NCBI GenBank assembly: GCA_049303675.1
Contig: JBAQNJ010000001.1
Location: forward strand, 821,443-885,442
DNA: 64,000 nt
DNA from: Microgenomates group bacterium
Lineage (GTDB): Bacteria; Patescibacteriota; Microgenomatia; UBA12405
Reading direction: 5' to 3'
Shown: in pieces, positions 2,027 to 39,444 of the stretch
Numbering within the stretch: the first letter of the stretch is position 1
How the letters are laid out: each line of letters opens with the position of its first letter
Position numbers and translations under genes: made by a program
The notes under the pieces: model-generated
What the model was told of the DNA's origin: nothing
The model's database searches: none
The model's input: the letters and a program-made list of their open reading frames with translations, nothing else

Positions 2027-4297
2027 ATGAAAAGTTCAAATACTCTCTGGTTTAAGGATATTCACTTCGAAGATGTCAACATTGTCGGTGGCAAAGGTGC
2101 CAATTTGGGCGAAATGTACAATCTCGGTATTCCTGTCCCCAATGGCTTTGTCGTCACTTCCTCTGCCTATTTTCAATTTATCAAAGACAACAATCTCAAA
2201 TCTCAAATTAGTGATATTCTCAAAACTACCAATGTCGATGAGCCAGATCAATTATTGTCTGCCTCCAAAAAAATAAAAACTCTTATTAAAAAAAGTCCCC
2301 TGCCAGATGCCCTTGCTTTTGAAATCATGTCCAATTACAAAAAGTTATCTGGGTTTATTGGCCTAAGTAACGCTTCCGTTGCCGTCCGCTCCTCCGCTAC
2401 CGCCGAGGATTCAGCTGATGCTTCGTTTGCCGGCCAACAGGAAACTTTTCTCAATGTAGTTGGTGAAGCCAATGTCGTCAACCGTGTCCGTGATTGTTGG
2501 GCCTCTCTTTTTACCCCTCGTTCCATTTTTTATCGAGTCAAGAAAAAATACGACCATTTCCAAGTGGGGGTCGCTGTGCCAATTCAAAAACAAATTCAGT
2601 CAGAAATCTCGGGAATTATGTTTACTGTCAATCCCGTCAGTAACAACAAAAATCAAATTATTATTGAAACAGTTTGGGGACTAGGGGAGTACATAGTTCA
2701 AGGTCAAGTCACTCCTGACCAAATTATTCTCGATAAAAGTAATTGGGGTATTGTTTCCAAAAATCATGTTAGCCAAGATGTCATGTTAGTCAAATCTCAA
2801 AACGAAACTAGCGAAGTCCCTGTCCCCAAATCAAAACAAAACAAGATCAAGATCAGCGACGAGTTTGCTGTCAAAATCGCCAAAGTTGGCCAAAAGTTGC
2901 ACAACCATTATGGCAAACCCCAAGATATCGAATTTGCCATTTTCAAAAATGAATTATTCATCGTCCAAACTCGACCAATCACCACTGTCGCTTCAAACCA
3001 AAAAACCCTCAACTCCCAAACTACCATCACCTCCAAACCAGACCTGACCGGTGAATCAGCCAGCCCCGGCAATGCCACCGGTGTAGTGATGATTATTAAG
3101 TCACCCAAAGAAATCAACAAAGTTCAAAAGGGTCATATCATGGTCACCTCCATGACCTCCCCTGACTTTGTCCCTGCCATGAAAAAAGTTAATGGCATCA
3201 TTACCGACAAGGGTGGCCAAACATCTCATGCCGCTATCGTTAGTCGCGAATTGGGAGTCCCTTGTGTTGTTGGCACTAAAACTGCCACCAAGTTTTTTCA
3301 CGACGGAGATATTGTCACTATCAATGGAACTACTGGCGAAATTTGGTTTGGTGATCTTACCAACAATATAGCACCCATCGCGCCATCTCCCCACCGCGCC
3401 GTAGCGCTTCGTACTGCCACCAAGGTCTATGTCAACCTAGGCGAACCGGAACTGGCAGCTACAATTAGTAAACGTCACGTTGATGGAGTTGGGCTTCTCC
3501 GAGCGGAATTTATGATTGCCAATATCGGCATCCACCCTAAAAAAATGATTGCTGACGGTCGTCAAAAAGAATATATTGAAAAATTGGCCATGAATATAGC
3601 CAAATTTTGCAAGAGTTTTTCGCCTCGGCCAGTTGTCTACCGAGCCACTGATTTTAAAACCAACGAATATCGGTTTTTAAAATGGGGTAAGCTCTACGAA
3701 CCAGAAGAACCCAATCCCTTACTCGGCTTTCGTGGTGCCACTCGATACATCAACAGTCCTGATGTTTTTAGTATGGAGCTGGAGGCCATCAAAATGGTCC
3801 GCAACCGTCTCAATCTCAAAAACCTTTGGCTGATGATTCCCTTTGTCCGCACCCCTCATGAATTATTTTTAGTCAAAAAACTGATTTCTGATCATGGCTT
3901 ACTTCGTTCTCCTACATTCAAATTGTTTATGATGGTCGAGATACCTAGTAATGTAATTCTCCTCGATAAATTTATTGATGTGGGCATCGATGGTATCAGT
4001 ATCGGTAGCAATGACCTGACCATGCTTACACTCGGGCTCGACCGCGACAATGGTGAAGTCGCCAAGGACTTCAACGAAATGGATCCTGCAGTACTGTGGA
4101 GTCTCAAAAGAGCCATTACTAAGGCCAAAAAACGAGGTGTCCTCGCCTCTATTTGTGGCCAAGCCCCTAGCAATCACCCTGAATTAGTGGAAAAACTAGT
4201 CAAGTGGGGTGTGACCTCAATTTCAGTTTCACCCGATGCTATCGACCGCACCCGTGAGATCATTTCTTGGGCAGAGAAAAAAAGAATGGAAAAATAA
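2027..4297 (+). CDS. ppsA: phosphoenolpyruvate synthase / PEP-utilizing enzyme (three domains)
   Basis: N-terminal ATP-grasp 'GGKGANLGEM', phosphohistidine swivel 'GGQTSHAAIVSRELGVPCVVG', C-terminal PEP-utilizing TIM barrel; 756 aa. Confidence 0.85.
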   Translation: MKSSNTLWFKDIHFEDVNIVGGKGANLGEMYNLGIPVPNGFVVTSSAYFQFIKDNNLKSQISDILKTTNVDEPDQLLSASKKIKTLIKKSPLPDALAFEIMSNYKKLSGFIGLSNASVAVRSSATAEDSADASFAGQQETFLNVVGEANVVNRVRDCWASLFTPRSIFYRVKKKYDHFQVGVAVPIQKQIQSEISGIMFTVNPVSNNKNQIIIETVWGLGEYIVQGQVTPDQIILDKSNWGIVSKNHVSQDVMLVKSQNETSEVPVPKSKQNKIKISDEFAVKIAKVGQKLHNHYGKPQDIEFAIFKNELFIVQTRPITTVASNQKTLNSQTTITSKPDLTGESASPGNATGVVMIIKSPKEINKVQKGHIMVTSMTSPDFVPAMKKVNGIITDKGGQTSHAAIVSRELGVPCVVGTKTATKFFHDGDIVTINGTTGEIWFGDLTNNIAPIAPSPHRAVALRTATKVYVNLGEPELAATISKRHVDGVGLLRAEFMIANIGIHPKKMIADGRQKEYIEKLAMNIAKFCKSFSPRPVVYRATDFKTNEYRFLKWGKLYEPEEPNPLLGFRGATRYINSPDVFSMELEAIKMVRNRLNLKNLWLMIPFVRTPHELFLVKKLISDHGLLRSPTFKLFMMVEIPSNVILLDKFIDVGIDGISIGSNDLTMLTLGLDRDNGEVAKDFNEMDPAVLWSLKRAITKAKKRGVLASICGQAPSNHPELVEKLVKWGVTSISVSPDAIDRTREIISWAEKKRMEK

Positions 4298-12595: not shown

Positions 12596-12610
12596 TTGGC
12601 AGCCTGTCGC

Positions 12611-12862
12611 CTAAGGCGACTGCTCAACCAATTTAACTTTTAACCACTCACGACCCTTACCAGACTTTAAAGACTTTTCTCTTCTTAAGGCATCTATTCT
12701 CGTTGGCATATTTTCACCATAAATTAAATCAAATGGAAAAGTTAGTGAAGTATATTTGGATTTACCAGAATTATGTTCCGACATTCTTCTTTCAATATCG
12801 TTTGTCTGGCCTACATATAGTCGATTGTTTACCCGACTTTTAAGTACGTATACAGTAAACAT
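12611..12862 (-). CDS. GIY-YIG nuclease family protein (UPF0213/YhbQ-like)
   Basis: 'FTVYVLKSRVNNRLYVGQTNDIERRMSEHNSGKSKY' motif; paralog of 9479..9739. Confidence 0.75.
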   Translation of the reverse strand: MFTVYVLKSRVNNRLYVGQTNDIERRMSEHNSGKSKYTSLTFPFDLIYGENMPTRIDALRREKSLKSGKGREWLKVKLVEQSP

Positions 12863-12865
12863 TCT

Positions 12866-12939
12866 GAGCGAGAGACGGGACTCGAACCCGCAGCCTTCTC
12901 CTTGGCAAGGAGATGCTCAACCAATTGAGCTACTCTCGC
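12866..12939 (-). tRNA. tRNA-Gly (anticodon GCC)
   Basis: rc: GCGAGAGTAGCTCAATTGGTTGAGCATCTCC-TTGCCAA-GGAGA AGGCTGCGGGTTCGAGTCCCGTCTCTCGCT. Confidence 0.85.
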
Positions 12940-12943: not shown

Positions 12944-12974
12944 CAGTTAACAGATTTCAGTTAACCGTTTACAG
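12944..12974. repeat. GTTAAC-core repeat, left flank of four-helix-bundle gene: CAGTTAACAG-ATTT-CAGTTAACCGTTTACAG
   Basis: read directly. Confidence 0.65.
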
Positions 12975-13344
12975 TTTTTAGCGACCTTATCAAACCGTAG
13001 AGTATTTTACCAGTTAAATCAGCCTGTGTTAATACCGGATTTACATCAAGTTTCGGATACAATTTATTAATAATTTTACATATTGCGACCACCTCAACCA
13101 GTGACTTTCTCGATATGCCCAAAAACTTAATGAAATCTCTTCTGCTGTCAGAAGCACTACCTTCAGCAATATTAATTGCCACCGATGTTGACGCTCTCCT
13201 GATCTGATCACCTAGACCATGCACTTCAAAACTAGGCAACAAAGTATGTAAAAGATATGAAAACTCTACTAACCTTACGGACTCTTCCCACACTTTTAAC
13301 TTTTCAAAATTCTGCATTTTCCTCTGTATACTGTTAACTGCCAT
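12961..13344 (-). CDS. four-helix-bundle protein (TIGR02436 / '23S rRNA intervening-sequence protein' family)
   Basis: 'LKVWEESVRL...LP..E.HGLGDQIRRASTSVAINIAEGS...FLGISRKSLVEV' family signature. Confidence 0.75.
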   Translation of the reverse strand: MAVNSIQRKMQNFEKLKVWEESVRLVEFSYLLHTLLPSFEVHGLGDQIRRASTSVAINIAEGSASDSRRDFIKFLGISRKSLVEVVAICKIINKLYPKLDVNPVLTQADLTGKILYGLIRSLKTVNG

Positions 13345-13359
13345 CCGTTAACTGTTTAG
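13331..13359. repeat. GTTAAC-core repeat, right flank of four-helix-bundle gene: CTGTTAACTG-CCATC-CGTTAACTGTTTAG (direct orientation relative to the left flank)
   Basis: read directly. Confidence 0.65.
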
Positions 13360-13432
13360 TGCCGAAAGTTGGACTCGAACCAACATCCCAGGTTTTTCAG
13401 ACCAGTGCCGTGACCATCTTGGCTATTTCGGC
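13360..13432 (-). tRNA. tRNA-Phe (anticodon GAA), copy 1
   Basis: rc: GCCGAAATAGCCAAGATGGTCACGGCACTGGT-CTGAAAA-ACCTG GGAT GTTGGTTCGAGTCCAACTTTCGGCA; anticodon stem has one U.U mismatch; 73/73 identical to the copy at 39464..39536. Confidence 0.65.
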
Positions 13433-13513
13433 TTAAGAAGTATTTGTATTATACAAAATAAAAATATTTTTGTTCTACTGTATTCTATCAACAGTTAACT
13501 GTTCGCTGTCGAG

Positions 13514-13595
13514 TGCCGTTGAGAGGACTTGAACCTCCACGCCTTGCGGCATACGCTTCTGAGACGTACGTGTATACCAATTTCACCACAACGGC
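13514..13595 (-). tRNA. tRNA-Leu (anticodon CAG)
   Basis: rc: GCCGTTGTGGTGAAATTGGTATACACGTACGT-CTCAGAA-GCGTA + long variable arm + GGAGGTTCAAGTCCTCTCAACGGCA. Confidence 0.8.
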
Positions 13596-13643
13596 AAATC
13601 AAGGTATTATCTCACGAAACAAATTCAGTTTTTATCTTTACAA

Positions 13644-14186
13644 CTATTTAATAACATCCTCAAACAGTTCTTTAGCGCTAAACACTAATGGCAATTTTAA
13701 AACCTCTTCACGAGTAAACCATTTTGCCTCAATTACTTTACTCTCAACATCATCTCTAGTTTCAGTTGTTTCAGATATAGTTTCAAAAAAGAAAATCACT
13801 CCATGATAATTATATTTTGGTGCAATTGCCTCTCTGAAGACTAAGAAACTTAGTTCCTTAGCCACAATTCCAGTTTCTTCCAATATCTCTCTTTTAGCCG
13901 CAATCTCCAGAGTTTCTCCAAATTCAACCTTACCTCCTGGTATTATCCAATAATCCTTGCCTCCTTCTAATGTTTCCCTAACTAACAAGAACTTGTTTTT
14001 ATTTCTTACCAACACGCCAACTATTACTTTTGGTTTCCTTTTTATCATTTCTAACTGAATCTTAGGCGGAATCGGCCGACAACTACACTCTCGGTTGTGA
14101 TCCGTATGCCACTGAATTCTCTCGTTCAAACTTGCCTTTTTAGGCATCTTGTTCTTCTGGTGCCACTCTTTATTTATCTTCGCCAT
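13644..14186 (-). CDS. NUDIX hydrolase with N-terminal Cys/His-containing extension
   Basis: Nudix box 'GGKVEFGETLEIAAKREILEETG'. Confidence 0.8.
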   Translation of the reverse strand: MAKINKEWHQKNKMPKKASLNERIQWHTDHNRECSCRPIPPKIQLEMIKRKPKVIVGVLVRNKNKFLLVRETLEGGKDYWIIPGGKVEFGETLEIAAKREILEETGIVAKELSFLVFREAIAPKYNYHGVIFFFETISETTETRDDVESKVIEAKWFTREEVLKLPLVFSAKELFEDVIK

Positions 14187-25320: not shown

Positions 25321-25394
25321 GAGTCTATAGCTCAGTTGGCTAGAGCGTCTCATTGACATTGAGAAGGTCAGAGGTTCAAGTCCTCTTAGACTCA
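25321..25394 (+). tRNA. tRNA-Val (anticodon GAC)
   Basis: GAGTCTATAGCTCAGTTGGCTAGAGCGTCTCA-TTGACAT-TGAGA AGGTC AGAGGTTCAAGTCCTCTTAGACTCA. Confidence 0.85.
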
Positions 25395-27063
25395 CTAGAG
25401 AATACATCGGGTAGTTTATACACCTTTGTGAATATCGGATTTAGCGTATAGTTGGTAACTTTCTTATCTTTAATAGTAAAGTTCAAGAACACTTTTCTTA
25501 GTATAAAATCTAGCTGTCTCAGTGCCTTAGCTTTTTCCACTTCCTGTGGGATAATCTTTACTAGTTCAAGAAATTCATCAAAGGTCTTTGGAATCCGTTT
25601 TGATATCTCTAATTCATACCGAACTCTTTTTAATTCACCTTTGACTTCTGCCAGCCTATCTTCCATTTTAGTCAAATCACCTTCATAACTTTCAACCAAT
25701 CTCCTTTTATCACGCTGTTTCTCGTACCGCAAAATGTACTGCCTAATTGTCAATGCCTGTTTCTCTTTTTGACTTTCCTCAGCCGAAAGCGATCGTCTCA
25801 TACTATCCAATTCTTTAATTTTTTCCTCAGATGCCACCTTAAATTCCTTTTTGTATTCCTCATATCCCTCCTCGACTTTTATTGTAGCCCTCTTTAACAA
25901 ATCAGTAGCAAAATTCACCACTACTTTTGCCCGAACTGACTTATTGTGAAAAATGCAACCCTCTGTTTCGCAACGGAAATAAAATCGATTTACTTTTTGT
26001 TTTGTATGATGGGAAATCCCTGTCGACATTTCCTCTCCACAGTACCCACAAACAACTCTCTGCCTAAGCAAGTCCGCCTTTACAGTCCCGCCTCTTCTCG
26101 CCACAAATGCACCCCCGACCTTACCACCATTTACTTGTAAAAATTGGTCAGGTGTAACCATTGGTCGAAAATCATAAAAATCACCCAAGATACAAACCCT
26201 TGGGATGTTTTCTCCATAACTTAAGACTCCCTCATAAATTGGATTCTTTAACATCCTTGACACCATCTGTTTATCAAAGACACACAACTGATGTTTACCT
26301 CCACCAGTACCAACGGCCATTTTATATTTTTTACTATTCAAATATTCGGCAATTTCTTTCTCTCCTGTTTTGTCCAATCTCATAAACCATGCCTGTTTAA
26401 TATATGCCCAATATTTATCATCTGGCCTCAAAAATCCATTCGCATCCTTATAGTAACCATGTTTCGTTCGATTCAACTGTTTCCCTTTTTTAAGAGCATT
26501 ATTAATGCCTCTTATAACCGATTCTGAAAGATGGTCAGTATATTGTTTAGCCATTACAAACAACATCCCCAACAAAGTTTTGCCTGAAGGATTGTTCTCA
26601 AACTTAACTGTTTTGAATTGTAAATCTTTAATGATTCCCCGATCCAACAAATCAATAATTTCCCCCGCCTCCTTCAAGTTCCGACTTAGCCTGTCAGGGT
26701 GCCAAGATATAATACCGTCAATCTACCCGCCTTAATATCTTCAAGCATTTTCGAAAATAACGGTCTAATACCCGATTCTTTAGCCGACTCTGATTCCTGA
26801 ATTATTCTCTCGTCTTCCTTCCCTGAAATTAGCTTCAAATCCCTATCTTTTACTATTTCCAAACATTCCTCTACTTGAGCTGGTAGCGACTCCACCTGAT
26901 TATCTTTCTCGTCTGTCGACTTACGGGCATAAATCACATACCTAAAACTGTTTGGGTCAATTTTTTCTAACCTAGCGTTCATTATCTCACCAATTTCCTG
27001 AGCCAACTCCACCACTGTCATTGCTCCCTGTTTTTCCCCTATAGTATTATTTTCATTATTCAC
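25376..27063 (-). pseudogene. large serine recombinase (resolvase catalytic domain, recombinase domain, zinc ribbon, coiled coil) interrupted by a -1 frameshift at ~26722-26724
   Basis: N-terminal ORF 26686..27063 has 'YARKSTDE...'; C-terminal ORF 25376..26677 (TTG start) has the recombinase domain and Cys4 ribbon ('CGYCG...C..C'). My hand translation shows the conserved '...KAGR|IDGIISWHPDRLSRN' motif split between two frames; the 3' end overlaps tRNA-Val by 19 nt. Confidence 0.7.
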
Positions 27064-27320
27064 TAAATCAGTATAAAACTCCTACTCACCTAAATCAAAG
27101 ATTCGCCAGCGAAAGCTAAAAGTCGTCTCAGTACCCACAACAGACCATCTCCATCACATCACCAAAACCCATAGGTCTAACATAAATATAATTTCCCATA
27201 CTAATATCACCACGCGAAATATCCTCAATTGCAGTGGCAATATTTTCATTCGCCTAGCGAATCCTATTAGAGAAAACACACAAATCGGTCTCTAATTCTG
27301 CGACCCAAAATTATTATCTT

Positions 27321-27944
27321 CTATTTCCCTTTCCCTTTATCTCCACGTCTTTTTAATCCAGATGTATTTGGCGTTACCCTCCATCCCATAATTGAACCAT
27401 CAACTGCACTTAAATCAAAGGGGGGATTGCTCCCGTCAGGAGTCACGTCGGAAAGTAGAGTCAACTCTCCATTTTTTTTACCAACACACGTCAAGTGTAA
27501 ATTTGTCTGACCAGCTTCATCCTCAACTGTACAAAGGGCTAAATACCTGCCCCCCGCATCAATCGTTTTATCTATTTCCGCAATTGTACAATCTTCAAAA
27601 ATAAACTTGTGATCTCTTAAGCCCATGCCAAAATCCGTATCAGTTTTTCTCATCCTACCAATATACTGATGTATTTTTCCGATCTCGGTGTCTAGTTCTG
27701 GAAACTCACCTTCTAAACTTTTTATCTCACTTACCGCCATACCTCTCTCCAAAAGTGTTTTTCGTGTTGACATCAAGTTAGCAGCCCCCTTTAACATATC
27801 CCCATACCTTTCAACAATAGAGTCAGTATCTGGTTGAACTCCCACCGCAGTACCTAATGCCTTTGGCACACAAGCTTTTTCGGTTGCCCTTTGAAGAATT
27901 GATCCCTTCCCTAAATTTTCAATAAAAACCTTGGTACTTACCAT
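27321..27944 (-). CDS. hypothetical protein (207 aa)
   Basis: ORF only; Lys/Gly-rich C-terminal tail. Confidence 0.4.
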   Translation of the reverse strand: MVSTKVFIENLGKGSILQRATEKACVPKALGTAVGVQPDTDSIVERYGDMLKGAANLMSTRKTLLERGMAVSEIKSLEGEFPELDTEIGKIHQYIGRMRKTDTDFGMGLRDHKFIFEDCTIAEIDKTIDAGGRYLALCTVEDEAGQTNLHLTCVGKKNGELTLLSDVTPDGSNPPFDLSAVDGSIMGWRVTPNTSGLKRRGDKGKGK

Positions 27945-28054
27945 ATAGTATTATATCATAAAGTCCTATAACATTTCATGATCTCCATAAAATAGGCCTG
28001 GCTAAAAAACTCAACGGCAAACCACATTCAATATTTAGACCAATTACTCATGCA

Positions 28055-28375
28055 TCAGAAAGCATCTGTTACACCAACAGATAAAATTGTTGGAATTTTG
28101 TTTACAGGGGGAACAGGTAAAGGGGGAGAGATTGGGGTAACTTTTGGAACCCTTGGCACAGGCTTAACTGAATATAATGCCCTTAAAATGTAGTCTCCGT
28201 CCAAATAACCCCTATAATCTCCAGATCTGTCCCAAACCAAATTCCCTTCTATCCATCCCAAATATTCACCATCTCTAGAAAACAAATAGTCTCCTTGTAT
28301 AAAACCTAAATAAATTCCATTTGATTTAAAAATATATTTCATATTATATGTTTTCCTTTCTGATAAGGGCTTCAA
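28055..28375 (-). CDS. repeat protein with ~4 copies of an 11-12-aa 'G-x-Y-L-G-x-I-x-G' motif and a Pro-rich C-terminus
   Basis: 'NGIYLGFIQGDYLFSRDGEYLGWIEGNLVWDRSGDYRGYLDGDYIL'; overlaps the upstream protease gene by 32 nt. Confidence 0.4.
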   Translation of the reverse strand: MKPLSERKTYNMKYIFKSNGIYLGFIQGDYLFSRDGEYLGWIEGNLVWDRSGDYRGYLDGDYILRALYSVKPVPRVPKVTPISPPLPVPPVNKIPTILSVGVTDAF

Positions 28376-29060
28376 CTTTTATCTCAGGCTCCGAATGTGA
28401 GGGAATATATGCACATGGAACAGCATAGCCTATCCCCAATTGTAGATTATCTATGATAGCTCTATATATTGAAATTGTGTCAACTCCCCAAACAGAAGAT
28501 GCCCCATTTGGCATTCTTTCAACCATGGTCAACAAATTAGATTGTTCACGCCTCTTTGCATTGATCACACCAATGACATTACCATCTGAATTCATTAGGG
28601 GGCAACCACTATTTCCGCCATTAACTGTACCGTCTACTAAGTAGTTTGTAATTCCAGCAGCATCCTTAATTATTGCAGCTAATATACCCTGATGAGTGGT
28701 TAAGGAAAATAAATCAAGTGGAAAACCAGAATAAATAACAGTCATCCCTTCAGAAATATTTTCTGCACTAGCCTGCATGAGTGGCATGTGGGAATCATCT
28801 GTAACCTGCAATAATGCAAGATCGTGCTCTTCATCTCTCAATAAAATCTTCGCTGGTTTTGGATCCTGTTCATCAGAAAACTTAACCAACGCCGCACCCC
28901 CGCCAGTATTTGACACAACATGATTACAAGTAACAATAATTCCTGGCCTATGAAAAACAAAACCACTACCCTTACTTTTAGTTCTATTACTTTCATCAAC
29001 TATCAGTACCAAAACAACACTCGGCTTAATTTTTGCAACCACGGAAGAGAAACCATTCAT
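28344..29060 (-). CDS. trypsin-like serine protease domain protein (S1 family)
   Basis: catalytic triad context: 'VTCNHVV' (His), 'HDLALLQV' (Asp), 'GNSGCPLMNSDGNVIGV' (Ser). Confidence 0.7.
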   Translation of the reverse strand: MNGFSSVVAKIKPSVVLVLIVDESNRTKSKGSGFVFHRPGIIVTCNHVVSNTGGGAALVKFSDEQDPKPAKILLRDEEHDLALLQVTDDSHMPLMQASAENISEGMTVIYSGFPLDLFSLTTHQGILAAIIKDAAGITNYLVDGTVNGGNSGCPLMNSDGNVIGVINAKRREQSNLLTMVERMPNGASSVWGVDTISIYRAIIDNLQLGIGYAVPCAYIPSHSEPEIKVEALIRKENI

Positions 29061-29313
29061 CAGACTTATGATATCACCTCATTGTGGTTTTTAAACTTGT
29101 TTGACCGTTATATAAAATGGATAAAAATGATATAGGATAAGTTTTTGGACCAAGTTCCGTTTTCAGTCAAACCCCTACGGTACCCCGACGGCACCCGCCA
29201 CATAGATTTTAGGAAGAGGGAAGTGGTCTAACTAGTTTTTACTACCCCAACCATCCACCATACCTCATTTAGCTTCAAACAATGCAAAACGACTCACTAA
29301 TGAGCCATTACCT

Positions 29314-29592
29314 TTACCCAAACATAGTTGGTATATAGCTGTTACCTAGTTCAAGAAACTTTATGTTATTGATTATGCCTTCTTCTTTTAGGTCAACAAC
29401 TACGCCACCTACGCCAAAAACTTGACCTGTCTTCAAACCATCACCACTGGACATTCCGCCACCAGTACCACTTAAAGTTGTTTTGATTTCATATAAGTTT
29501 AATTTATCGATAAGTTCGTACAAATCATTACTTTGATACATTTGTTTATTGATTAATCTACTAACTCCCCGATTATAACACCACTGGTGCAA
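29314..29592 (-). CDS. hypothetical Gly-rich small protein (92 aa)
   Basis: ORF only. Confidence 0.3.
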   Translation of the reverse strand: MHQWCYNRGVSRLINKQMYQSNDLYELIDKLNLYEIKTTLSGTGGGMSSGDGLKTGQVFGVGGVVVDLKEEGIINNIKFLELGNSYIPTMFG

Positions 29593-29739
29593 ACTGATTT
29601 TCTAGCTCTTTATAGCCACCACTGATATAATCAGACAGGCTGATATTAAACTCTTCCACTTTTTCTAGGTTACTAAAAGCAAAATTAAAAAGTTCAAGAA
29701 CAGTATCATTACCCTCACTGAACCTAATCTAGAATTGCT

Positions 29740-33104: not shown

Positions 33105-33139
33105 AAGCTCTCCGATAGCTATCGGAGAGCTTTTGTTTT
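33105..33139 (+). terminator. rho-independent terminator (perfect 12-bp-stem hairpin AAGCTCTCCGATAGCTATCGGAGAGCTT + TTTGTTTT) abutting the pheS-fragment ATG
   Basis: read directly; no SD sequence between the hairpin and the ATG at 33140. Confidence 0.65.
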
Positions 33140-33640
33140 ATGCAACTAGAAGAAATAAAAAAAGAAATAGAAAAATGTTCAACGGCAGCTGATTTGGAAA
33201 ATATTCGTATAAAATATCTAGGTAGAACTGGTCTAATTAATGCCGAATTTTCCAAAATAAAGTCTGCCCCAGACCATAAACTTTTTGGTATAGAGTTAAA
33301 TGAATTAAAAAAATCAGTTGAAGAATTAATCGAAACAAAAAATTCTTCCCTTGGTCACGAAATAAAATCAATCAAAAAAAATATATCAGTAGCTTCAATA
33401 AAAAAAATCGGACATTTACATCCTTTAACAATAACTGAGCGTCAACTCAACGAAGTTTTCCGCAAACTAGGCTTCTCCATCTACAATTCTCCTGAGATTG
33501 TCACTGATGAGTACAATTTTGAGCGCCTGAATGTCCCCAAAAATTACCCTGCCCGTGACATGAAAGAGATTGGACCCATTACAATTATCAAAGTTGAAAT
33601 AGCAGATAATATCTCGACAATATTTTACGAATTAAAATAA
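33140..33640 (+). pseudogene. pheS: phenylalanyl-tRNA synthetase alpha subunit, N-terminal 141 codons only (homology ends after 'NYPARDM' at ~33563; tail is unrelated)
   Basis: 'LENIRIKYLGRTGLIN' and 'GHLHPLTITERQLNEVFRKLGFSIYNSPEIVTDEYNFERLNVPKNYPARDM' align to PheS residues ~25-155; the catalytic core and pheT are absent from the window. Confidence 0.7.
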
Positions 33641-33701: not shown

Positions 33702-35183
33702 ATGGCAAAAGTTACTTTTACTATCTCAGGGTTATCGAAAAAATTCATATTCAAGACAATCGGCAAAGACATCTCAGCATTACAAAAAAAACTTTTTCGC
33801 TTGCAAATTGCCACCAAACTTCCTCCAGAATTTTTACCTCTCCATGCGTGTTTATTAAAAAAAAATAATATTGGTATTCTCTTGACCGGTCCGAGCCAAT
33901 CTGGCAAATCAACACTAGCTACTTTACTTAACCAAATAGGTTTTGAGCCTCTAGCAAATGATTTTGTTGCAGTTACCTCTGAAAAAAATAAATTGATGGC
34001 CAGTGATATTAATTACCAATCAAATAGTAACCACTACTTACCAACACCCATTGATTATATATTCGCTTTAAACTCAAAAGATGAACTTGATATCAGCAGA
34101 ATGTCCAAAAAGGTATTTAGACATTTTTATATAGAACAACTACAACCACTATCACACAAGTCAGTTTTGCCCTTAACAAAAAGACCACTGTTTAAACAAT
34201 TGTTTCTGAAACATATTAGCCTAGGAAACAGAAAAAACCCAGTGAAATGGCTCAAAAGCATAAAGTATATTATGTCTTTGTCAATACCAAAAAAAGTTGG
34301 AATTTTTGGGTTAGGTACAATTGGCCAAGATATATCAAGCCTACTTCTTACCCAATCAAATTTAAGTGAATTACATCTATTTACCCGCGATCAAATTAAA
34401 CTAGCTTCTTTCGTTTTAGATTTAAAAAGTGCCAACCAAAAACTAGTAATTATTGCTCATACAAAAGTCGAGGACTTTTTTAACAGTAGTGATATCGTAA
34501 TTCTGTGTTTTAGAGAAGACGTATCCGTAACCTCTAGTCCCCAAGTTGAAGAAAGAGTTAAGAAACTTCTTCCCCACTCAAAGATTATTTGGGATCTCAG
34601 TCGTGTTACTCGTAAGGTTGGATTTACGGGCAGTATTTTAATGGTTACTAACCCAGTCGACTTGCTCTCTTCGCTACTCTACAACTTTTCATGGTTAAAT
34701 GATCAGAACCAGTCAGATGACCAAGGGCTGTTTTCAAACCAAATACTTGGAGTGGGAATTGGCTTAGACTATAAACGTTTAAAGACCTTCAAGCAGACGG
34801 AGAAATTAGAATTAGTTGGTCCACACGGTAGCGATTTACAACTTGCTCAGGTCAAAAACGGAATATTAACAGAGGCAAATTCAAAATACCTAGCCGGCGT
34901 CATAAGTTATTCCGATAAAATTCGACTTGGTTGTGCCCGAACTAGGGTGGGTCCAGTATATGAAATAAACAAAATTCTCACTACACTCTTGATAGGGAAA
35001 GGAATCATCAGAGCCTCTGGTTTATACCACTCAGGCATATTTTTAGGTAATATCTGGAGAATCAAGAATCACATTCCCAGCACTAACTATATTTTGGATA
35101 AAAAATTACAAAAAAAACTGGATCAGATATCCGCTAAACAAAACGATTTGTTGCAAACAACTAAAATCGATTTGTTTAGGTAG
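33702..35183 (+). CDS. two-domain fusion protein: N-terminal HprK-like P-loop kinase domain plus C-terminal L-lactate/malate dehydrogenase-like domain
   Basis: N: 'IGILLTGPSQSGKSTLATLLNQIGFEPLANDFVAV' (HprK C-domain-like Walker A). C: 'KKVGIFGLGTIGQD' (GxGxxG), 'LMVTNPVDLL' (NPVD), 'ILGVGIGLDYKRL' (LDxxR), 'VGPHGSDL' (catalytic His). Confidence 0.6.
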   Translation: MAKVTFTISGLSKKFIFKTIGKDISALQKKLFRLQIATKLPPEFLPLHACLLKKNNIGILLTGPSQSGKSTLATLLNQIGFEPLANDFVAVTSEKNKLMASDINYQSNSNHYLPTPIDYIFALNSKDELDISRMSKKVFRHFYIEQLQPLSHKSVLPLTKRPLFKQLFLKHISLGNRKNPVKWLKSIKYIMSLSIPKKVGIFGLGTIGQDISSLLLTQSNLSELHLFTRDQIKLASFVLDLKSANQKLVIIAHTKVEDFFNSSDIVILCFREDVSVTSSPQVEERVKKLLPHSKIIWDLSRVTRKVGFTGSILMVTNPVDLLSSLLYNFSWLNDQNQSDDQGLFSNQILGVGIGLDYKRLKTFKQTEKLELVGPHGSDLQLAQVKNGILTEANSKYLAGVISYSDKIRLGCARTRVGPVYEINKILTTLLIGKGIIRASGLYHSGIFLGNIWRIKNHIPSTNYILDKKLQKKLDQISAKQNDLLQTTKIDLFR

Positions 35184-35250
35184 TTCTTCTGCTTGACACC
35201 TAAGTATCGAGTATGTATCATTACCAGCAAATAAGAAAATTACCAAGTTT

Positions 35251-36333
35251 ATGTCACATAATTGCCGAGAATATAAAATTAGACCAGCCGAACCAAGTGA
35301 TGCACCCGAACTAGTTGAACTAGTTAAAAATGGTATGCCAGGCTATCCATTTGAATCTGTATATCGTGAACAATCAGTCAAAGAATCCATTGAAAGTCCA
35401 ACCTCATATAGAGTAATTGCTGAAAGAAAGGGCAAAGTTGTCGGAACCGCAGTCCTAGGTGAAACTGGTGAGTACCAACAAGAAATCAAAAGGGTTGTAG
35501 TCTCACCAACTGAGCGAGGCAATGGTCTCGCTAGCACCATGACCAAACACCTAGCCGATAAGGCCACTGCAGCAGGTATCGTCCCATGGCTAGATGCTAG
35601 AACCAGAGAACCCGCCATGCAGCAAGCTGGTCTAAGCGCTGGTATGCATGCCATGTCTCTCGAAAAAGGCAAACATCTAGTTTATAACCATTTAGATAGT
35701 CAAGGACAAGAAGTTGGCCCAGCTCGGGAAACTATGGTAAACGAAACATTACTAACAAAAGACCCTCAAGAATTGACTGGTGGACTAAAAAGATGGGGTC
35801 ATAATTTATTAAAAACTCTAGCGGCAAACATGGAAGATTCATTTTCTCCTCCACCCAAAGATGTAAGTATTGTAAATAAAGAAATACCTAGTGCTAGAGA
35901 AGTTAAGGAAAAAATTGAGAGAGGGATTAGAAACCTGTCACCAAGCACCGTTCAAAGGACTTCAAACCCCGACATCGTTATCCTCTCAGAACACCAAACA
36001 TCTATGGTAGTAGTCACGCCGGATGCATCAGCATTTGTTTTGACCAAACCAAACGTCGGACTAAAGAAGATGGTCGAAACAGGTGAAAAAATTGGACTAC
36101 AAACCATCACCGCATATATTGATATTGGTGATATTAAATCACAACGACATTTACGAGACGCAGATATGTCTCCAACTATGGTTCGCTTAAATCAAAACAA
36201 AAGGTGTGAACCTATAACCTATCAAGTAGGTTGGAGAAAAACGGCCAATAGCTTTAACCAGTGTGTCGACGAAATCAAAGTTGCCCCTGAAGCAGAACGT
36301 CAAATTCGAGACATCATCAAAAGAATTCCGTAA
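35251..36333 (+). CDS. GNAT-family N-acetyltransferase domain protein with ~200-aa C-terminal extension of unknown function
   Basis: 'IRPAEPSDAPELVELVK...VVGTAVLGE...VVVSPTERGNGLASTMTKHLADKA' GNAT motifs A/B. Confidence 0.6.
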   Translation: MSHNCREYKIRPAEPSDAPELVELVKNGMPGYPFESVYREQSVKESIESPTSYRVIAERKGKVVGTAVLGETGEYQQEIKRVVVSPTERGNGLASTMTKHLADKATAAGIVPWLDARTREPAMQQAGLSAGMHAMSLEKGKHLVYNHLDSQGQEVGPARETMVNETLLTKDPQELTGGLKRWGHNLLKTLAANMEDSFSPPPKDVSIVNKEIPSAREVKEKIERGIRNLSPSTVQRTSNPDIVILSEHQTSMVVVTPDASAFVLTKPNVGLKKMVETGEKIGLQTITAYIDIGDIKSQRHLRDADMSPTMVRLNQNKRCEPITYQVGWRKTANSFNQCVDEIKVAPEAERQIRDIIKRIP

Positions 36334-36348
36334 GTATATAATTAGACA

Positions 36349-37425
36349 ATGAAAAACGAATTGTTGAAAATATTAACCAAGCTTGTCAGCTTCCAAACAA
36401 CCAACGACCAGCCAGAAAATATTACCAAATGCTTTGACTATATAGATAGCCAGTTATCTTTTTATCCCTTCGCCAAAAAAATATATATCCAAAATGGGGT
36501 AGAATCACGTGTCTGGAGTACAAAAAAATCCCTAAACACGGAATATATTCTAAATGCTCATATTGATGTAGTACCTGCAGATCAAAAACTTTTTAAGCTC
36601 CACCTTCAACAAGACAAACTAAATGGCAGGGGAGTGTCCGACATGAAATTCTCGATTGCCTCCTACATTTGTATTTTAAAAGATATCTATACTGCTACAA
36701 AGAAGCTACCGTCCATTGCCCTTATGTTGACTTCAGACGAAGAGCTTGGTGGCTATAACGGTGTCAACTACTTGGTTAATCAAATTGGATATAGTGCCTC
36801 TGTCGTTATGGTACCCGATGGTGGAGAGAATAACAAAATAGTTGAAAACGCCAAGGGTGTGTTGCATTTACAAATTAGTTCCACTGGTATTCCCGCCCAC
36901 GCTGCCAGACTTTGGGAAGGGGAATCTGCAATTGAAAAATTAGCTCAGGCTATTGTCAATTTACGAAAAATATATCCTTATCCGTCAAAATCTGTTTGGA
37001 AAAACACCCTAAATATAGGTAAAATACAAGGTGGCACTCAAACTAATCAAGTTCCGGATTCAGCTTTTATGTATCTCGACATCCGCTATCTCCCCACTAC
37101 CAACACTGATATTGTAGTAAAAAAAATAGCCAATGCCTGCCCCAATTGTCAAGTTAAAACAATTATTAATGGTGAGGCTTTTCATATAGACAAAAACAAT
37201 AAATATATTAGCAGGTGGGCCAAGTTAATTTCAAATGGCAAACAGGTTTATATTAATGAAAACATAGCTTCAGATGGTCGATACTTCTCTGCCAAAAACA
37301 TTCCGGTAATTGTTTCCAAACCAATTGGTGGACTAATTCACCACCATGATGAATGGACTAGCCTATCTTCCCTCATGGAATTTACTAACAATCTGAAAAA
37401 ATTTTTGACAAATGACACTGACTAG
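36349..37425 (+). CDS. M20-family metallopeptidase/deacylase (ArgE/DapE/CPG2-like)
   Basis: 'LNAHIDVVP', 'GRGVSDMKFSIA', 'LMLTSDEELGG' metal-binding motifs. Confidence 0.7.
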   Translation: MKNELLKILTKLVSFQTTNDQPENITKCFDYIDSQLSFYPFAKKIYIQNGVESRVWSTKKSLNTEYILNAHIDVVPADQKLFKLHLQQDKLNGRGVSDMKFSIASYICILKDIYTATKKLPSIALMLTSDEELGGYNGVNYLVNQIGYSASVVMVPDGGENNKIVENAKGVLHLQISSTGIPAHAARLWEGESAIEKLAQAIVNLRKIYPYPSKSVWKNTLNIGKIQGGTQTNQVPDSAFMYLDIRYLPTTNTDIVVKKIANACPNCQVKTIINGEAFHIDKNNKYISRWAKLISNGKQVYINENIASDGRYFSAKNIPVIVSKPIGGLIHHHDEWTSLSSLMEFTNNLKKFLTNDTD

Positions 37426-37744
37426 ACTAAAAGGAATTGGTATTGGCAACTCAAAAGGGAGTGGCCGAGTTTTAATCATTAGTTCACATCAGGATTTTGC
37501 CAAAGTCAAGGGTAATGAGGTCCTCGTGGTCCAAAATGCCACACCCGATTTCATTGTAATTCTCAAAAAAGTAAAATGTCTTATCACCGATCAAGGCGGA
37601 GCCACTTCTCATATCGCCATTGTTTGTCGTGAGTTGTCCATACATGCCATTATTGCCACCGGCCTAGCCACAGCCAAATTCCATAATAACGATGAAATTT
37701 ACTTTGATACAACAAAAGGAACTGTCACCAGATATGATCCATAA
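37412..37744 (+). CDS. stand-alone PEP-utilizing-enzyme mobile (phosphohistidine swivel) domain protein
   Basis: 'LITDQGGATSHIAIVCRELSIHAIIATG' matches the swivel His motif (compare 'GGQTSHAAIVSRELGVPCVVG' in ppsA of this window); 110 aa. Confidence 0.65.
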   Translation: MTLTRLKGIGIGNSKGSGRVLIISSHQDFAKVKGNEVLVVQNATPDFIVILKKVKCLITDQGGATSHIAIVCRELSIHAIIATGLATAKFHNNDEIYFDTTKGTVTRYDP

Positions 37745-38483
37745 ATCACTTCAACTACTCCATAAAACATTAATTAGTTATCCGTCAATCGTCACTAATT
37801 ACTTTGACAAGTGGGGGATCAGGCCAGAGAACTTGATCACCCGTCTTTCCGACACCAATTTTCATGGAGGCATTGAATCAAAGATTATTTCAATCCACAA
37901 CCTCCCCTCAAAAAAATATTCCACTACATTAGACATAGGTCCAGAAACGGGGATAGAAATATTTCTACTTTCAGAGATATCTGCCCATCTTCAAGTAGCC
38001 GACCCAGATGAAGACAATTTAATTCTATTAAAATCTATTACCGACAAGGCCCTTCCAATTTATTCAAAAAATATCAAATATATCCCCTGTGGACTAGATA
38101 ACAGCCATACCTATCTAGCAGAAAATTCATACTATACCCAACTAAAAAAAATACAAAAAAATTCAATTCCTACGTTTTACCATCTCACTTCCACCTCAGA
38201 ACTGGCCAATCTAGATTCAAAATTTGACCTAATCTATATCCACAAAATTATATCCACTATTAGTCGTTCACAAAAAACCCCAGCCAACTCAATATTTCAT
38301 AAATCACTTGACACGCTTTTTACTAAACTAAATAAAAAAGGCATTATTTCTTGGACTGAGCCAAAATTCTTCTGGGATCAACAAAAATTGACTATACCTG
38401 ATAAATATAAGACAAAAGTTATAGACTATCAACTCTCCAACACAGCTGACAATTATCGACAACTATTAATAACTCATGATTAA
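37734..38483 (+). CDS. hypothetical protein, possible class I SAM-methyltransferase-like
   Basis: start trimmed to Met15 to reduce overlap; 'TLDIGPETGIEIFLLSE' loosely resembles MTase motif I; weak. Confidence 0.3.
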   Translation: MIHKSLQLLHKTLISYPSIVTNYFDKWGIRPENLITRLSDTNFHGGIESKIISIHNLPSKKYSTTLDIGPETGIEIFLLSEISAHLQVADPDEDNLILLKSITDKALPIYSKNIKYIPCGLDNSHTYLAENSYYTQLKKIQKNSIPTFYHLTSTSELANLDSKFDLIYIHKIISTISRSQKTPANSIFHKSLDTLFTKLNKKGIISWTEPKFFWDQQKLTIPDKYKTKVIDYQLSNTADNYRQLLITHD

Positions 38484-39444
38484 CCCCCGCTTAAATCCCT
38501 GGAACATTTATGGAAATTTTTCCAATCCAGACCCATCCATTACCGCCAACGTATATGCCAATGGTCATGAATGGTACAACTCTTACATGCCACCTTTTTT
38601 TTTGCTAAAAGACAAGCAACAAATCGCCAACATCAGAAAGAAACTTGATAAAGAATATATACAATATATATCAACAATATTTTCACCAAAAAATAGACTA
38701 AAAACAATCAAATTGCAATATTACCGAATCAAAAAATTTTTTAGCTTATCGAAAAAATTGATTCCAGAATTTGAGAAAATCGACGATCTCCAAAAACTGA
38801 ATCAACTACTTTATAAGTCAATCAATCTGATGCAGACATACCTAAACCCACTAGAGGCCATTGTCACCGGTAAACGTTCTTTATACAACCCGATTCCTCA
38901 TATTTTTAAAAACCAACATACCCAAATTGAATCACTAAAAAAATCACCCTCCTTAGAAACAATTTTTATTCCCATGTCAATAATTTTCACACACCGAAAA
39001 ACATTTTCAATTGAATATAAAAAAGTATTCAAGTATCTTACCTCCACTTTATTTTGTACCTCCAGAGATCTTCAGTTTGCCTTTAAATATGTTGAGAAGA
39101 CCTATCACTATAGTCACTTTATGGAATTATTTGACGCCCAACATGTTGTCAAACAAAATTATCACAAAATATTACACCTATCAGAACTCACACCTACCCA
39201 AGAATTTGTACACCATCTTCAGACAATCAGTGGTATTTTAACATGGTCAAAATATATCCCGATATCATACAAACCACTCCACTTTCGCTATTTTTGTGAA
39301 ATAGAAACATATTCAATTCTCTTAAATACACCCGAGGTAAAAGCATCAGAATTTCTCAAAAAAGAACTGTCGATCAAATCAAACTCAGGCTCAGAAAAGT
39401 TTGCCAAAACTATTTTTGCATTTAAATATTTTAACCATTTCTAA
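38476..39444 (+). CDS. hypothetical protein (322 aa)
   Basis: ORF overlapping the upstream stop; no motif recognised. Confidence 0.35.
   Translation: MINPRLNPWNIYGNFSNPDPSITANVYANGHEWYNSYMPPFFLLKDKQQIANIRKKLDKEYIQYISTIFSPKNRLKTIKLQYYRIKKFFSLSKKLIPEFEKIDDLQKLNQLLYKSINLMQTYLNPLEAIVTGKRSLYNPIPHIFKNQHTQIESLKKSPSLETIFIPMSIIFTHRKTFSIEYKKVFKYLTSTLFCTSRDLQFAFKYVEKTYHYSHFMELFDAQHVVKQNYHKILHLSELTPTQEFVHHLQTISGILTWSKYIPISYKPLHFRYFCEIETYSILLNTPEVKASEFLKKELSIKSNSGSEKFAKTIFAFKYFNHF

Follow-up and report, generated by a model that had tools for sequence, protein, structure and literature searches.

The window, a 64,000-nt stretch from the genome of a Microgenomates group bacterium, contains two genuine tRNA-Phe(GAA) genes that give one identical tRNA. 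In the account that we consider probable as a whole, copy 1 is ancestral, copy 2 was made within the lineage and lies in a replaced pheST locus, the stem mismatches of both copies are inherited, and a phenylalanine attenuator converges on copy 2. Duplication of a tRNA gene is in itself an ordinary event. Across a whole CPR class, most tRNA-Phe genes have U.U at 28:42, which is useful to tRNA annotators and to studies of PheRS identity elements, and a broken canonical pheST in a minimal genome of ~1 Mb raises the testable question of where the essential PheRS is encoded. Classical Phe attenuators, moreover, operate, or at least are conserved, in Patescibacteria, where they precede pheS-pheT, tRNA-Phe and a DAHP-synthase-like gene.

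Two tRNA-Phe genes with one sequence

Copy 1 occupies positions 13360-13432 on the minus strand and copy 2 positions 39464-39536 on the plus strand. The first-pass annotation had described two 100% identical genes on opposite strands, with isotype and anticodon assigned by eye, and our data agree on all these points: the copies are identical at 73/73 nt, ARAGORN, one of the two tRNA callers proposed there as a check, returns tRNA-Phe(gaa) at 13359-13432(-) and 39464-39537(+), and Rfam model RF00005 scores 65.3 bits for each copy, exactly at 13360-13432 and 39464-39536 and far over its gathering score of 29. The ARAGORN order likewise agrees with the placement of copy 1 within a minus-strand tRNA array.

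The anticodon loop (CTGAAAA) has 7 nt, with U33, the anticodon GAA and a purine at 37; the discriminator is A73 (gene end ...GGCA), the D loop (GATGG) contains G18G19, and the T loop reads TTCGAGT. Two non-standard pairs are present in the Rfam alignment, U28.U42 and, in the D stem, A13.C22, and apart from these no defects were found. The earlier description of a cloverleaf that is canonical except for U28.U42 was therefore right about that pair and missed the other. CCA is encoded by none of the 16 tRNA genes in the window, so that the tRNA-Phe genes require its post-transcriptional addition.

Beyond the tRNA, the copies share just 2 nt at the 5' end (AA) and 3 nt at the 3' end (CTA). When the 100 nt on either side are compared between the copies, identity is 33% and 27%, which is the random level. 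A CTA trailer follows 6 of the 16 window tRNAs and is a common motif in this genome, and we reject it as proof of a duplication that reached beyond the tRNA.

The second copy, or its placement, could be a mis-join or chimera at the repeat. The repeat is short, and short-read contigs do break there: in independent assemblies of runs SRR28062869 and SRR28062879, contigs stop after exactly 30 nt of the 78-nt repeat on three of its four sides (contig ends at 39491, ~39510 and 13386 in window coordinates), and on the fourth side the contig ends in tRNA-Leu. The pattern fits a de Bruijn graph with k=31, a value deduced from the breaks themselves and not a documented parameter, and the position of the breaks on three sides means that both tRNA contexts are present in the reads. 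Both junctions of copy 2 are confirmed by Logan contigs (L087, L088, L102), as is the junction between the truncated pheS (pheS') and the accessory segment described below (L002, L003); in total, independent Logan assemblies from two runs recover the pheS' junction and three of the four flank-tRNA junctions. The pheS' protein has two NCBI protein accessions and occurs on four contigs, of which two belong to the 0.2-1 Mb length class, and the assembled order keeps both the conserved tRNA array and the rplT-PBP1a synteny. An assembly artefact is, against this evidence, extremely improbable.

Inherited mismatches in the stems

For comparison, 78 complete Shapirobacteria-type tRNA-Phe genes were assembled from a scan of ~80 species. 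Position 28:42 is U.U in 61 of these genes, G.U in 10, A-U in 3, C-G in 3 and G-C in 1, and 13:22 is unpaired in every one of the 78 (A.C in 72, A.A in 6). Covariation was tested on 33 distinct orthologue sequences, in which the acceptor and T stems are 100% paired, with 5 and 4 covarying pairs respectively, and 11 pairs change on both sides. The only unpaired positions in this set are 13:22 (33/33) and 28:42 (U.U in 19/33); paired cells amount to 92.5% versus 82% in shuffles, a value that 0 of 500 shuffles reach. Because U.U is the majority state, U28.U42 and A13.C22 appear to be inherited lineage traits of this tRNA and not signs of decay. A pseudogene verdict, named in the first-pass annotation as one that would speak against it, was not obtained, and we reject this candidate on the grounds of the frequency of U28.U42, the unpaired 13:22 of all orthologues and the lack of other defects.

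A disrupted pheST locus

Relatives share the conserved order tig-DUF5660-tRNA-Val-thrS-infC-rpmI-rplT-pheS-pheT / PBP1a-recG. At this locus the window has pheS', a 166-aa ORF at 33140-33640(+) whose homology is restricted to PheS residues 1-146 (nt 33140-33568) and stops just past the PARDM motif. A tblastn alignment with a relative's PheS ends at residue 146 of 328, and the match to Pfam tRNA-synt_2d covers profile positions 10-66 of 246 only; the product is an incomplete class II catalytic core that fails as PheS in the test with PF02912 and PF01409. Neither the PheS C-terminus nor PheT, nor an intact pheS or pheT, was found in the window by tblastn, and the 998,417-bp contig harbours none of the 120 top homologues of a Shapirobacteria PheS. 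Look-ups of protein clusters likewise yielded no accessions for the candidate PheS proteins. What had been annotated as an island carrying pheS is a disrupted pheST locus, in which PheS is reduced to residues 1-146 and pheT is absent. The remnant is 65% identical to PheS of the closest relative, a typical value, and no protein compared exceeds 73% identity. Its GC3 of 0.27 might suggest foreign DNA, an idea that we reject, as the N-terminal part of PheS has a GC3 below that of its neighbours in three of four relatives.

Judging from gene order and homology, an accessory segment of ~8.7 kb (33569 to ~42300) appears to have replaced PheS residues 147 to the end together with all of pheT. Six plus-strand genes fill 33702-39444(+): an HprK-like/Ldh-N fusion (493 aa), a GNAT (360 aa), an M20 deacylase of ArgE/DapE type (358 aa), a PEP-utiliser swivel domain (110 aa) and two genes of no assigned function (263 and 322 aa). 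Copy 2 sits after these six genes downstream of the truncated pheS, 19 nt past the stop of the 322-aa gene, and abuts the stop codon of a 48-aa gene with which it is convergent. Further on follow, on the minus strand, a group II PLP-dependent decarboxylase of 517 aa (39835-41388), a 114-aa gene of no assigned function (41525-41869), which is the last gene of the segment, and the syntenic PBP1a gene (42346-44967). GC3 of the accessory genes is 0.30-0.36 as against 0.39-0.44 in most core genes.

A link of these genes to phenylalanine is a candidate only. We reject a defence system (PADLOC gave 0 matches to the accessory genes) and a phage origin: the sole PHROG match among them is a generic acetyltransferase family, hit by the GNAT, and no viral contig was found with this type of tRNA-Phe or with the 48-aa family. 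A conserved mobile cassette is rejected as well, since the homologues that the HprK/Ldh fusion has in Paceibacterota, in Woesebacteria and on another contig lie in unrelated neighbourhoods, and none of the other accessory genes recurs near them.

A predicted phenylalanine attenuator facing the second copy

The minus strand opposite copy 2 carries the elements of a predicted attenuator. A promoter (39811-39838, TTGACA-16-TATAAT, a 12/12 consensus match) precedes a leader peptide ORF with four consecutive Phe codons, found by ORF scan at 39736-39792 (MKGVQFFFFMPSLGGPNL, followed by a stop), and an intrinsic terminator at 39690-39715 (CCUCCC GAAA GGGAGG + U6). Alternative pairings are available as 1:2 (CCUUCC/GGGGGG) and 2:3 (GGGGGG.../...CCUCCC), with computed folding energies of -9.5 kcal/mol for 1:2, -18.3 for 2:3 and -15.7 for the 3:4 hairpin. 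The top Rfam match of the region 39686-39793(-) is Phe_leader RF01859, with 28.0 bits (E=0.01) under a gathering score of 55. Homologous leaders reach 32.6 and 25.6 bits, again top-ranked and sub-threshold, and by the Rfam criterion (25-33 bits versus 55) the leaders fall outside the family. These homologous leaders stand before pheS-pheT (L108 and L104/L110) or before tRNA-Phe-pheS-pheT (L067, the same contig as L105), and in L108, L110 and L067 they are followed by the same terminator as in the window. The whole arrangement points to a classical ribosome-mediated Phe leader-peptide attenuator. In several cases the start codon of the leader is close to the -10 element, and the leader mRNA may be leaderless. 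A full-text literature search found no paper that joins leader-peptide attenuation with the Candidate Phyla Radiation.

A possible second Phe-rich leader lies at 41397-41505(-), with a promoter TTTCCA-16-(TG)TATAAT at 41505-41478, an ORF at 41468-41418 (MIEKLFINFFCFTFIR, followed by a stop) and, immediately before the ATG of the decarboxylase, a terminator GCCCCGC-TAT-GCGGGGC+T8 at 41413-41397. It is tentative, because no antiterminator was found.

Downstream of the attenuator lies the 48-aa gene (39537-39683, minus strand), which is not called in the public annotation and whose TAG stop codon reads, on the other strand, as the CTA just after copy 2. Its product, which contains no Phe, is one of a conserved family of small proteins that carry the motif LPWIKDGSYK..EWQ and, C-terminally, RTxI. 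A search of 1.84 billion representative proteins gave three homologues (E = 8e-7 to 1e-4), and comparison of the family with PDB and Pfam found nothing; a 545-aa 'member' of the P0146 cluster proved to be an IS66 transposase unrelated to it. The N-terminal extension of one homologue (P0148) translates the same terminator sequence, which means that the junction between terminator and 48-aa gene is conserved. We thus have a rare conserved small protein under a putative Phe attenuator.

How the locus may work

Copy 2 has no good promoter of its own. Its sequence context suggests that it is probably co-transcribed with the upstream genes from the GNAT to the 322-aa gene, and that it would be cut out by RNase P and RNase Z. 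On the opposite strand, scarcity of charged tRNA-Phe would make the ribosome stall on the four Phe codons and mask segment 1; the 2:3 antiterminator would then form and permit read-through into the 48-aa gene. With plentiful tRNA-Phe, the 3:4 terminator would form instead. In relatives, a homologous attenuator would control pheS-pheT or tRNA-Phe-pheS-pheT, which argues that the second tRNA-Phe belongs to a neighbourhood that senses Phe-tRNA and is not an integration site. That copy 2 lies beside the attenuator might be a coincidence; the putative target, the 48-aa protein, has no assigned function and contains no Phe. The closest relative compared (L094, ThrS 85% identical) has neither leader nor second tRNA at the locus, and the genome with the order leader-tRNA-pheST (L067) is more distant (ThrS 57% identical).

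A bolder reading, which we think quite unlikely, would treat the locus as a Phe-tRNA-responsive module in a ~1-Mb genome: the canonical pheS-pheT would have been destroyed with no vertically inherited replacement, PheRS would be xenologous or unusually encoded, and the attenuator would sense charged tRNA-Phe, switch on the 48-aa protein and drive antisense transcription into the second tRNA-Phe and its operon. If true, a CPR bacterium would have a feedback circuit on its tRNA-Phe supply of a sort not described before.

Alternatively, the present order might be a relic, in which copy 2 was once transcribed from the attenuator as in L067 and was then flipped by a local inversion of ~226 bp. In L067 the tRNA begins right after the same terminator tail (...GGTTTTTTGTTG followed by GCC), and the homology of the window to L067 stops at exactly this boundary between terminator tail and tRNA start. 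However, the junction between terminator and 48-aa gene is conserved in an unrelated contig, as the P0148 extension documents, and the 48-aa protein retains the RTxI end of its family, so that the segment from terminator to tRNA would be native and not an inverted fragment; nor did inspection reveal inverted repeats at the putative breakpoints. The conserved junction weakens the inversion, which we regard as very unlikely.

Origin of the second copy

Copy 1 is part of the array Leu(taa)-Pro-Gly(tcc)-Leu(cag)-Phe-Gly(gcc)-Val(tac)-Leu(gag)-Gln, and the order of tRNAs around tRNA-Phe is kept in most of 82 loci of related species. An extended -10 element (TGTATAAT) lies ~15 nt upstream of the gene. 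Because the array is conserved across Candidatus Shapirobacteria, copy 1 is the ancestral housekeeping gene. A second matching tRNA-Phe occurs in only one of ~80 other species, and no tRNA is found at the pheS locus of the relatives L091-L095; copy 2 thus appears to be a lineage-specific, derived paralogue of exactly tRNA size.

The tRNA-Phe of the window equals the commonest Shapirobacteria sequence, which is identical at 19 loci, except for the change of G7:C66 to A7:U66. Both window copies have A7:U66, a pair absent from every other U.U-type gene in the set of 78, which suggests that the copies became identical within the lineage, whether copy 1 was recently copied or an older second tRNA-Phe underwent gene conversion. 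Duplication and gene conversion predict the same present-day sequence.

Copy 2 might instead have come in with the accessory segment by horizontal transfer, the donor being a very close relative, and would then owe its identity to copy 1 to the extreme conservation of tRNA-Phe. One identical tRNA-Phe at 19 loci of different species makes identity weak evidence of recency, the composition of the accessory genes differs from that of most core genes, and in another Shapirobacterium a Phe leader is joined to a second tRNA-Phe of divergent sequence. The absence of A7:U66 from all other sampled U.U-type sequences, on the other hand, means that the donor would have to be nearly conspecific, and no other genome with the accessory segment was found; an exact-match look-up of L20 gave a match in this strain only. 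We consider such an arrival unlikely and prefer an origin within the lineage.

The first-pass annotation had attributed the identity to recent duplication or gene conversion linked to the island. Recent copying or conversion within the genome is borne out by A7:U66, whereas the signature of an island integration is lacking. On the latter interpretation, copy 2 would be the att site of a tRNA-targeting island, inserted by an integrase in or beside tRNA-Phe. The tRNA-Phe genes pheU and pheV are classic island integration sites in E. coli (PMC11537424, PMC6174562), the GC3 of the accessory genes is below that of most core genes, and the window also has a serine integrase element beside tRNA-Val(gac). 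That integrase, however, is 12 kb away, split into two ORFs and associated with tRNA-Val, and the stretch from 33.6 to 42.3 kb gave no match to an integrase or recombinase in Pfam, NCBIfam or PHROGs. The comparison of flanks, proposed earlier as a way to recognise an att remnant, gave the random-level identities reported above. The window has no partial tRNA-Phe copy (the 3' 25-mer at <=3 mismatches matches the two full copies only), and a search for flanking direct repeats found none. Moreover, relatives have no tRNA at the locus that could serve as target, and the left end of the segment is inside pheS, not at a tRNA. Integration at copy 2 is already largely refuted, and we judge it highly improbable.

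Comparison with known systems

Like E. coli pheU/pheV, the window has two identical tRNA-Phe(GAA) genes at separate loci with accessory DNA beside one of them (PMC11537424, PMC6174562). In E. coli, islands enter the 3' end of the tRNA via an integrase and leave direct repeats, whereas here there is neither integrase nor repeat and the tRNA lies between two convergent genes in a replaced pheST locus. The pattern resembles the concerted evolution of multi-copy tRNA and rRNA genes by gene conversion, in that identity is limited to the RNA-coding sequence with sharp ends and a lineage-specific compensatory change is common to both copies. In contrast to that case, conversion is here inferred and not seen directly, and a fresh duplication would give the same pattern equally well. 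Homogenisation is also not general: in the one other species that has two such genes, six positions distinguish them.

The pheM leader of E. coli lies directly upstream of pheS-pheT, after rplT. With pheM and with the pheA leader family RF01859 the predicted attenuator shares the promoter, the short ORF with a Phe run, the mutually exclusive 1:2, 2:3 and 3:4 hairpins and the intrinsic terminator, and the attenuators of L108, L110 and L067 resemble pheM also in their position directly upstream of the pheS-pheT operon. Unlike these systems, the host is a Patescibacterium (CPR) and the RF01859 score is below the gathering threshold; unlike pheM, the window attenuator precedes the gene of the 48-aa protein and not pheST.

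The operon of L067 (Shapirobacteria MAG SO_2016_GW1_37) has the order Phe leader - tRNA-Phe - pheS - pheT and shares with the window a terminator identical at 25/26 positions, the rplT-PBP1a neighbourhood and a Phe-rich leader that has a second tRNA-Phe next to it. Its tRNA, however, is on the leader strand, encodes CCA, differs from the array copy and is followed by an intact pheS-pheT, whereas the tRNA of the window is convergent with the leader and identical to the array copy, and lies in a locus where pheST is broken.

Two identical tRNA-Phe genes of a lineage-typical form

ARAGORN predicts 16 tRNA genes in the window, among them tRNA-Phe(gaa) at 13359-13432 on the minus strand (copy 1) and at 39464-39537 on the plus strand (copy 2), and the Rfam tRNA model scores 65.3 bits at each locus (gathering score 29), with the coordinates 13360-13432 and 39464-39536 of the first-pass annotation. 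Two 100%-identical tRNA-Phe(GAA) genes had been described there, correctly so: both tools call them and their 73-nt sequences are the same. The shared stretch extends beyond the tRNAs by two nucleotides at the 5' side (AA) and three at the 3' side (CTA); past these the flanks show 27-33% identity, which is random, so that comparing them revealed no further shared sequence. Nor is the common CTA evidence of a longer duplicated unit, because CTA directly follows the discriminator in 6/16 of the window's tRNA genes, and CT in 10/16. This CT/CTA suggests a preferred 3'-trailer motif for processing; none of the 16 genes encodes CCA.

On three of four sides, independent short-read contigs run exactly 30 nt into the shared stretch (78 nt) and end there, the pattern that a de Bruijn graph, presumably of k=31, is expected to give at a true repeat, and they reproduce the junctions of accessory segment to tRNA and of tRNA to attenuator. 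By exact match of the truncated PheS protein encoded upstream, the window falls on JBAQFH010000001.1 (998,417 bp) of assembly GCA_049287145.1, annotated as 'Microgenomates group bacterium'; the protein has two NCBI protein accessions and is present also in the Logan assemblies of SRR28062869 and SRR28062879.

The U28.U42 mismatch reported earlier for the anticodon stem reappears in the Rfam alignment, which also marks A13.C22 in the D stem as non-standard. With one genome taken per species and positions 27, 28, 42 and 43 left free, a pattern scan returned 82 loci and showed this tRNA-Phe type to be characteristic of Candidatus Shapirobacteria and Microgenomates close to them. Of these genes 78 are complete, and in them 28:42 is U.U in 61, G.U in 10, A-U in three, C-G in three and G-C in one, and 13:22 is A.C in 72 and A.A in six. 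Across the 33 distinct sequences the cloverleaf is strongly backed by covariation (0/500 shuffles reached the observed values), pairing is 100% in the acceptor stem, where five pairs covary, and in the T stem, where four do, and only 13:22 and 28:42 are systematically unpaired. Since the mismatches are a lineage trait and the cloverleaf covaries, pseudogene status is ruled out for both copies. The mismatch and the tRNA duplication are both ordinary.

Copy 1 stands in exactly the array order in which tRNA-Phe occurs at most related loci, Leu(taa)-Pro(tgg)-Gly(tcc)-Leu(cag)-Phe-Gly(gcc)-Val(tac)-Leu(gag)-Gln(ttg). A second matching gene was found by the scan in only one other species, where it is solitary (locus L067) and differs at six positions from the array copy of the same genome (L070). 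The window sequence is the commonest Shapirobacteria tRNA-Phe, common to 19 loci, with the compensatory change of G7:C66 to A7:U66, which is carried by both window copies and by no other U.U-type sequence among the 78 complete genes. It follows that the two copies became identical inside this lineage, either because copy 1 was copied recently or through gene conversion, two routes that fit the data equally; the recent duplication or conversion initially proposed is thus supported. The conserved array also holds small accessory genes (12961-14186 and 12600-12870), encoding a 23S rRNA intervening-sequence protein, a GIY-YIG protein and a NUDIX hydrolase; gaps between the same array tRNAs range across species from <100 nt to several kb, and this variable spacing marks the array as an insertion hot spot.

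A disrupted pheST locus

Relatives keep the order EF-P, tig, DUF5660, tRNA-Val(gac), thrS, infC, rpmI, rplT, pheS and pheT, followed by a convergent PBP1a gene and then recG. (Between PBP1a and recG of the related metagenomic contig L095, ARAGORN reports an amber-suppressor-like 'tRNA-Pyl(cta)' and a tRNA-Ile(aat), at 13672-13886, minus strand.) The window matches this order save for two deviations, an element after tRNA-Val(gac) and a changed pheS-pheT region. Here the ORF after rplT has only 166 aa; it matches the Pfam PheS core profile at positions 10-66 of 246 only, and its alignment with a relative's PheS is confined to residues 1-146 and stops at nt 33568, just past PARDM. A search with a relative's proteins detected neither the PheS C-terminus nor PheT anywhere in the 64-kb window. 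From 33569 to about 42300, the 3' part of pheS and pheT are replaced by six plus-strand genes (an HprK-like/Ldh-N fusion, a GNAT, an ArgE/DapE-type M20 deacylase, a PEP-utiliser swivel domain and two unknowns) and three minus-strand genes (a 48-aa gene, a group II PLP decarboxylase and a 114-aa unknown), and copy 2 sits within the same segment. The 'pheS island' of the first-pass annotation is in fact a disrupted pheST locus, with PheS residues 1-146 only and no pheT.

GC3 is 0.30-0.36 in the accessory genes versus 0.39-0.44 in most core genes. The pheS remnant looks resident, not foreign, because a low GC3 like its own, and an identity to the nearest relative like its 65%, are typical of the PheS N-terminal domain. 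A conserved cassette can be rejected for the accessory segment, since homologues of its first gene, the HprK-like/Ldh-N fusion, sit in unrelated neighbourhoods in other Patescibacteria. No defence signature was found in the segment, and its one PHROG match is a generic acetyltransferase. It likewise holds no integrase, partial tRNA repeat or flanking direct repeat, which leaves the earlier idea of an att-site remnant unsupported. The two unknown proteins encoded after the stand-alone swivel domain (110 aa, 37412-37744) might provide its partner domains; elsewhere in the window lies a gene for a full-length PEP synthase/PPDK-like enzyme (756 aa, 2027-4297).

The other deviation is an element of about 4.3 kb (25321-29711), inserted between tRNA-Val(gac) and thrS, where relatives have a gap of about 170 nt. 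It encodes a large serine integrase (phrog_95) split into two ORFs (26686-27063 and 25376-26677), the second overlapping the 3' end of tRNA-Val with its own 3' end, a trypsin-like protease resembling defence-system protease domains, and three unknown genes. An imperfect direct repeat beginning AAAGTTCAAGAACA lies at 25478 and 29689.

The main question raised by the locus is where PheRS is encoded. The window's 998-kb contig carries none of the 120 best homologues of a Shapirobacteria PheS; the closest relative's PheS ranks seventh among them, so a vertically inherited copy should appear in this set. No protein compared exceeds 73% identity to the pheS remnant. The PheRS may be a xenologue too divergent to rank there, or may be encoded on another contig; foreign replacement of aminoacyl-tRNA synthetases is documented in CPR, including the TyrRS of Shapirobacteria (PMC5370408). 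Plus-strand GC skew is uniformly negative over 1-64000 (-0.03 to -0.38, mostly -0.15 to -0.35), through gene blocks on either strand, and the absence of a sign change suggests that the window lies within a single replichore with unusually strong strand asymmetry.

Expression of copy 2 and a second candidate leader

Only weak promoter-like matches were found for a promoter of copy 2 itself. A 322-aa gene ends 19 nt before it, an 11/12 promoter lies ahead of the GNAT gene, and 35.2-39.46 kb holds no convincing terminator on the plus strand. The simplest reading of this arrangement is that copy 2 would be co-transcribed with the five upstream genes (GNAT to the 322-aa gene) and then processed by RNase P/Z. 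Read-through of the neighbouring attenuator would run antisense across it.

A second, weaker Phe-rich leader candidate, with an extended -10 promoter, the ORF MIEKLFINFFCFTFIR-stop and a 7-bp GC hairpin plus T8 adjoining the ATG of the decarboxylase, lies directly upstream of the PLP decarboxylase. Folding found no antiterminator, and a ribosome at the stop codon would have to shield the hairpin; we consider it rather doubtful that this leader is real. Strong terminator hairpins adjoin start codons at 33105-33132 (plus strand, before the pheS remnant) and at 41397-41413 (minus strand, before the PLP decarboxylase), and the 3' arm of each could act as a Shine-Dalgarno sequence; 'terminator plus RBS' may be a recurrent design.

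A putative phenylalanine attenuator and its relatives

Next to copy 2 on the right, in minus-strand orientation, a perfect promoter, TTGACA-16-TATAAT (39838-39811), precedes the leader ORF MKGVQFFFFMPSLGGPNL-stop (39792-39736; codons AUG AAG GGU GUC CAA UUC UUC UUU UUU AUG CCU UCC UUA GGG GGG CCU AAC UUG UAA) and an intrinsic terminator, CCUCCC-GAAA-GGGAGG-U6 (39715-39690). In predicted folds, segment 1 (CCUUCC, just past the Phe codons) pairs with segment 2 (GGGGGG) at -9.5 kcal/mol, segment 2 and its flanks with segment 3 (CCUCCC) at -18.3 kcal/mol, and segments 3 and 4 form the terminator at -15.7 kcal/mol. Judged from sequence, the layout is that of a textbook ribosome-mediated attenuator. 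Phe_leader is the best-matching Rfam model here, full length and in the correct orientation, at 28 bits, below the threshold of 55; the same model is the top sub-threshold match in the related loci L110 (32.6 bits) and L067 (25.6 bits).

Downstream of the terminator follows a 48-aa ORF (39683-39537, minus strand), uncalled in public annotation, whose SD-like GGGAGG is the 3' arm of the terminator and whose stop TAG is the complement of the CTA after copy 2. A full scan of 1.84 billion representative proteins gave three homologues of 57-65 aa (E = 8e-7 to 1e-4), which have in common the motif N(I/L)LPWI(K/R)D(G/D)SY..E(W/Y)Q and, in two of the three, a C-terminal RTxI; no Pfam, PDB or viral relative of the family was found. 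The annotated N-terminal extension of one homologue (P0148) is the translation of the very same terminator sequence, so the terminator-to-gene junction is kept in another organism. This conservation makes the predicted attenuator and the small gene a genuine module, and it argues against a 226-bp inversion that split the leader from the tRNA.

A metagenome scan with the terminator sequence as query found the same terminator upstream of pheS-pheT behind the Phe-rich leaders MTTNKSFSFFFNFTSQV-stop (L108) and MNATLTVYFFFTSFNGR-stop (L104/L110), and upstream of a DAHP-synthase-like gene behind the F/Y-rich leader MSIGKQQFYFYYFYLSNGRLFAGVRS-stop (L111, about 1750-1905). A GC-rich stretch of about 390 nt with an 84-aa ORF separates leader and pheS in L104/L110. 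Only about 7-18 nt separate the start codons of the leader ORFs from the -10 hexamer (window 39792-39816; L067 about 350-384; L104, L108), and these ORFs are without a Shine-Dalgarno sequence; their mRNAs may be wholly or almost leaderless. The PheT of L067 (1593-4109) has 838 aa versus 585-616 aa in relatives, and its extra C-terminal region matches the C-terminal part of the AlaRS model (PF01411, profile 449-552).

The site is of moderate interest for its Phe attenuator, the conserved small gene under it, a pheST locus broken in a ~1-Mb genome, and a parallel operon. This last is found in another Shapirobacterium, on the contig of L067 (= L105), where the solitary second tRNA-Phe comes directly after the leader MTKAVSLSFAFFFFTGPRGRIA-stop and a terminator that matches the window's at 25/26 positions, with pheS and pheT next in line: an operon of leader, tRNA-Phe and pheST.
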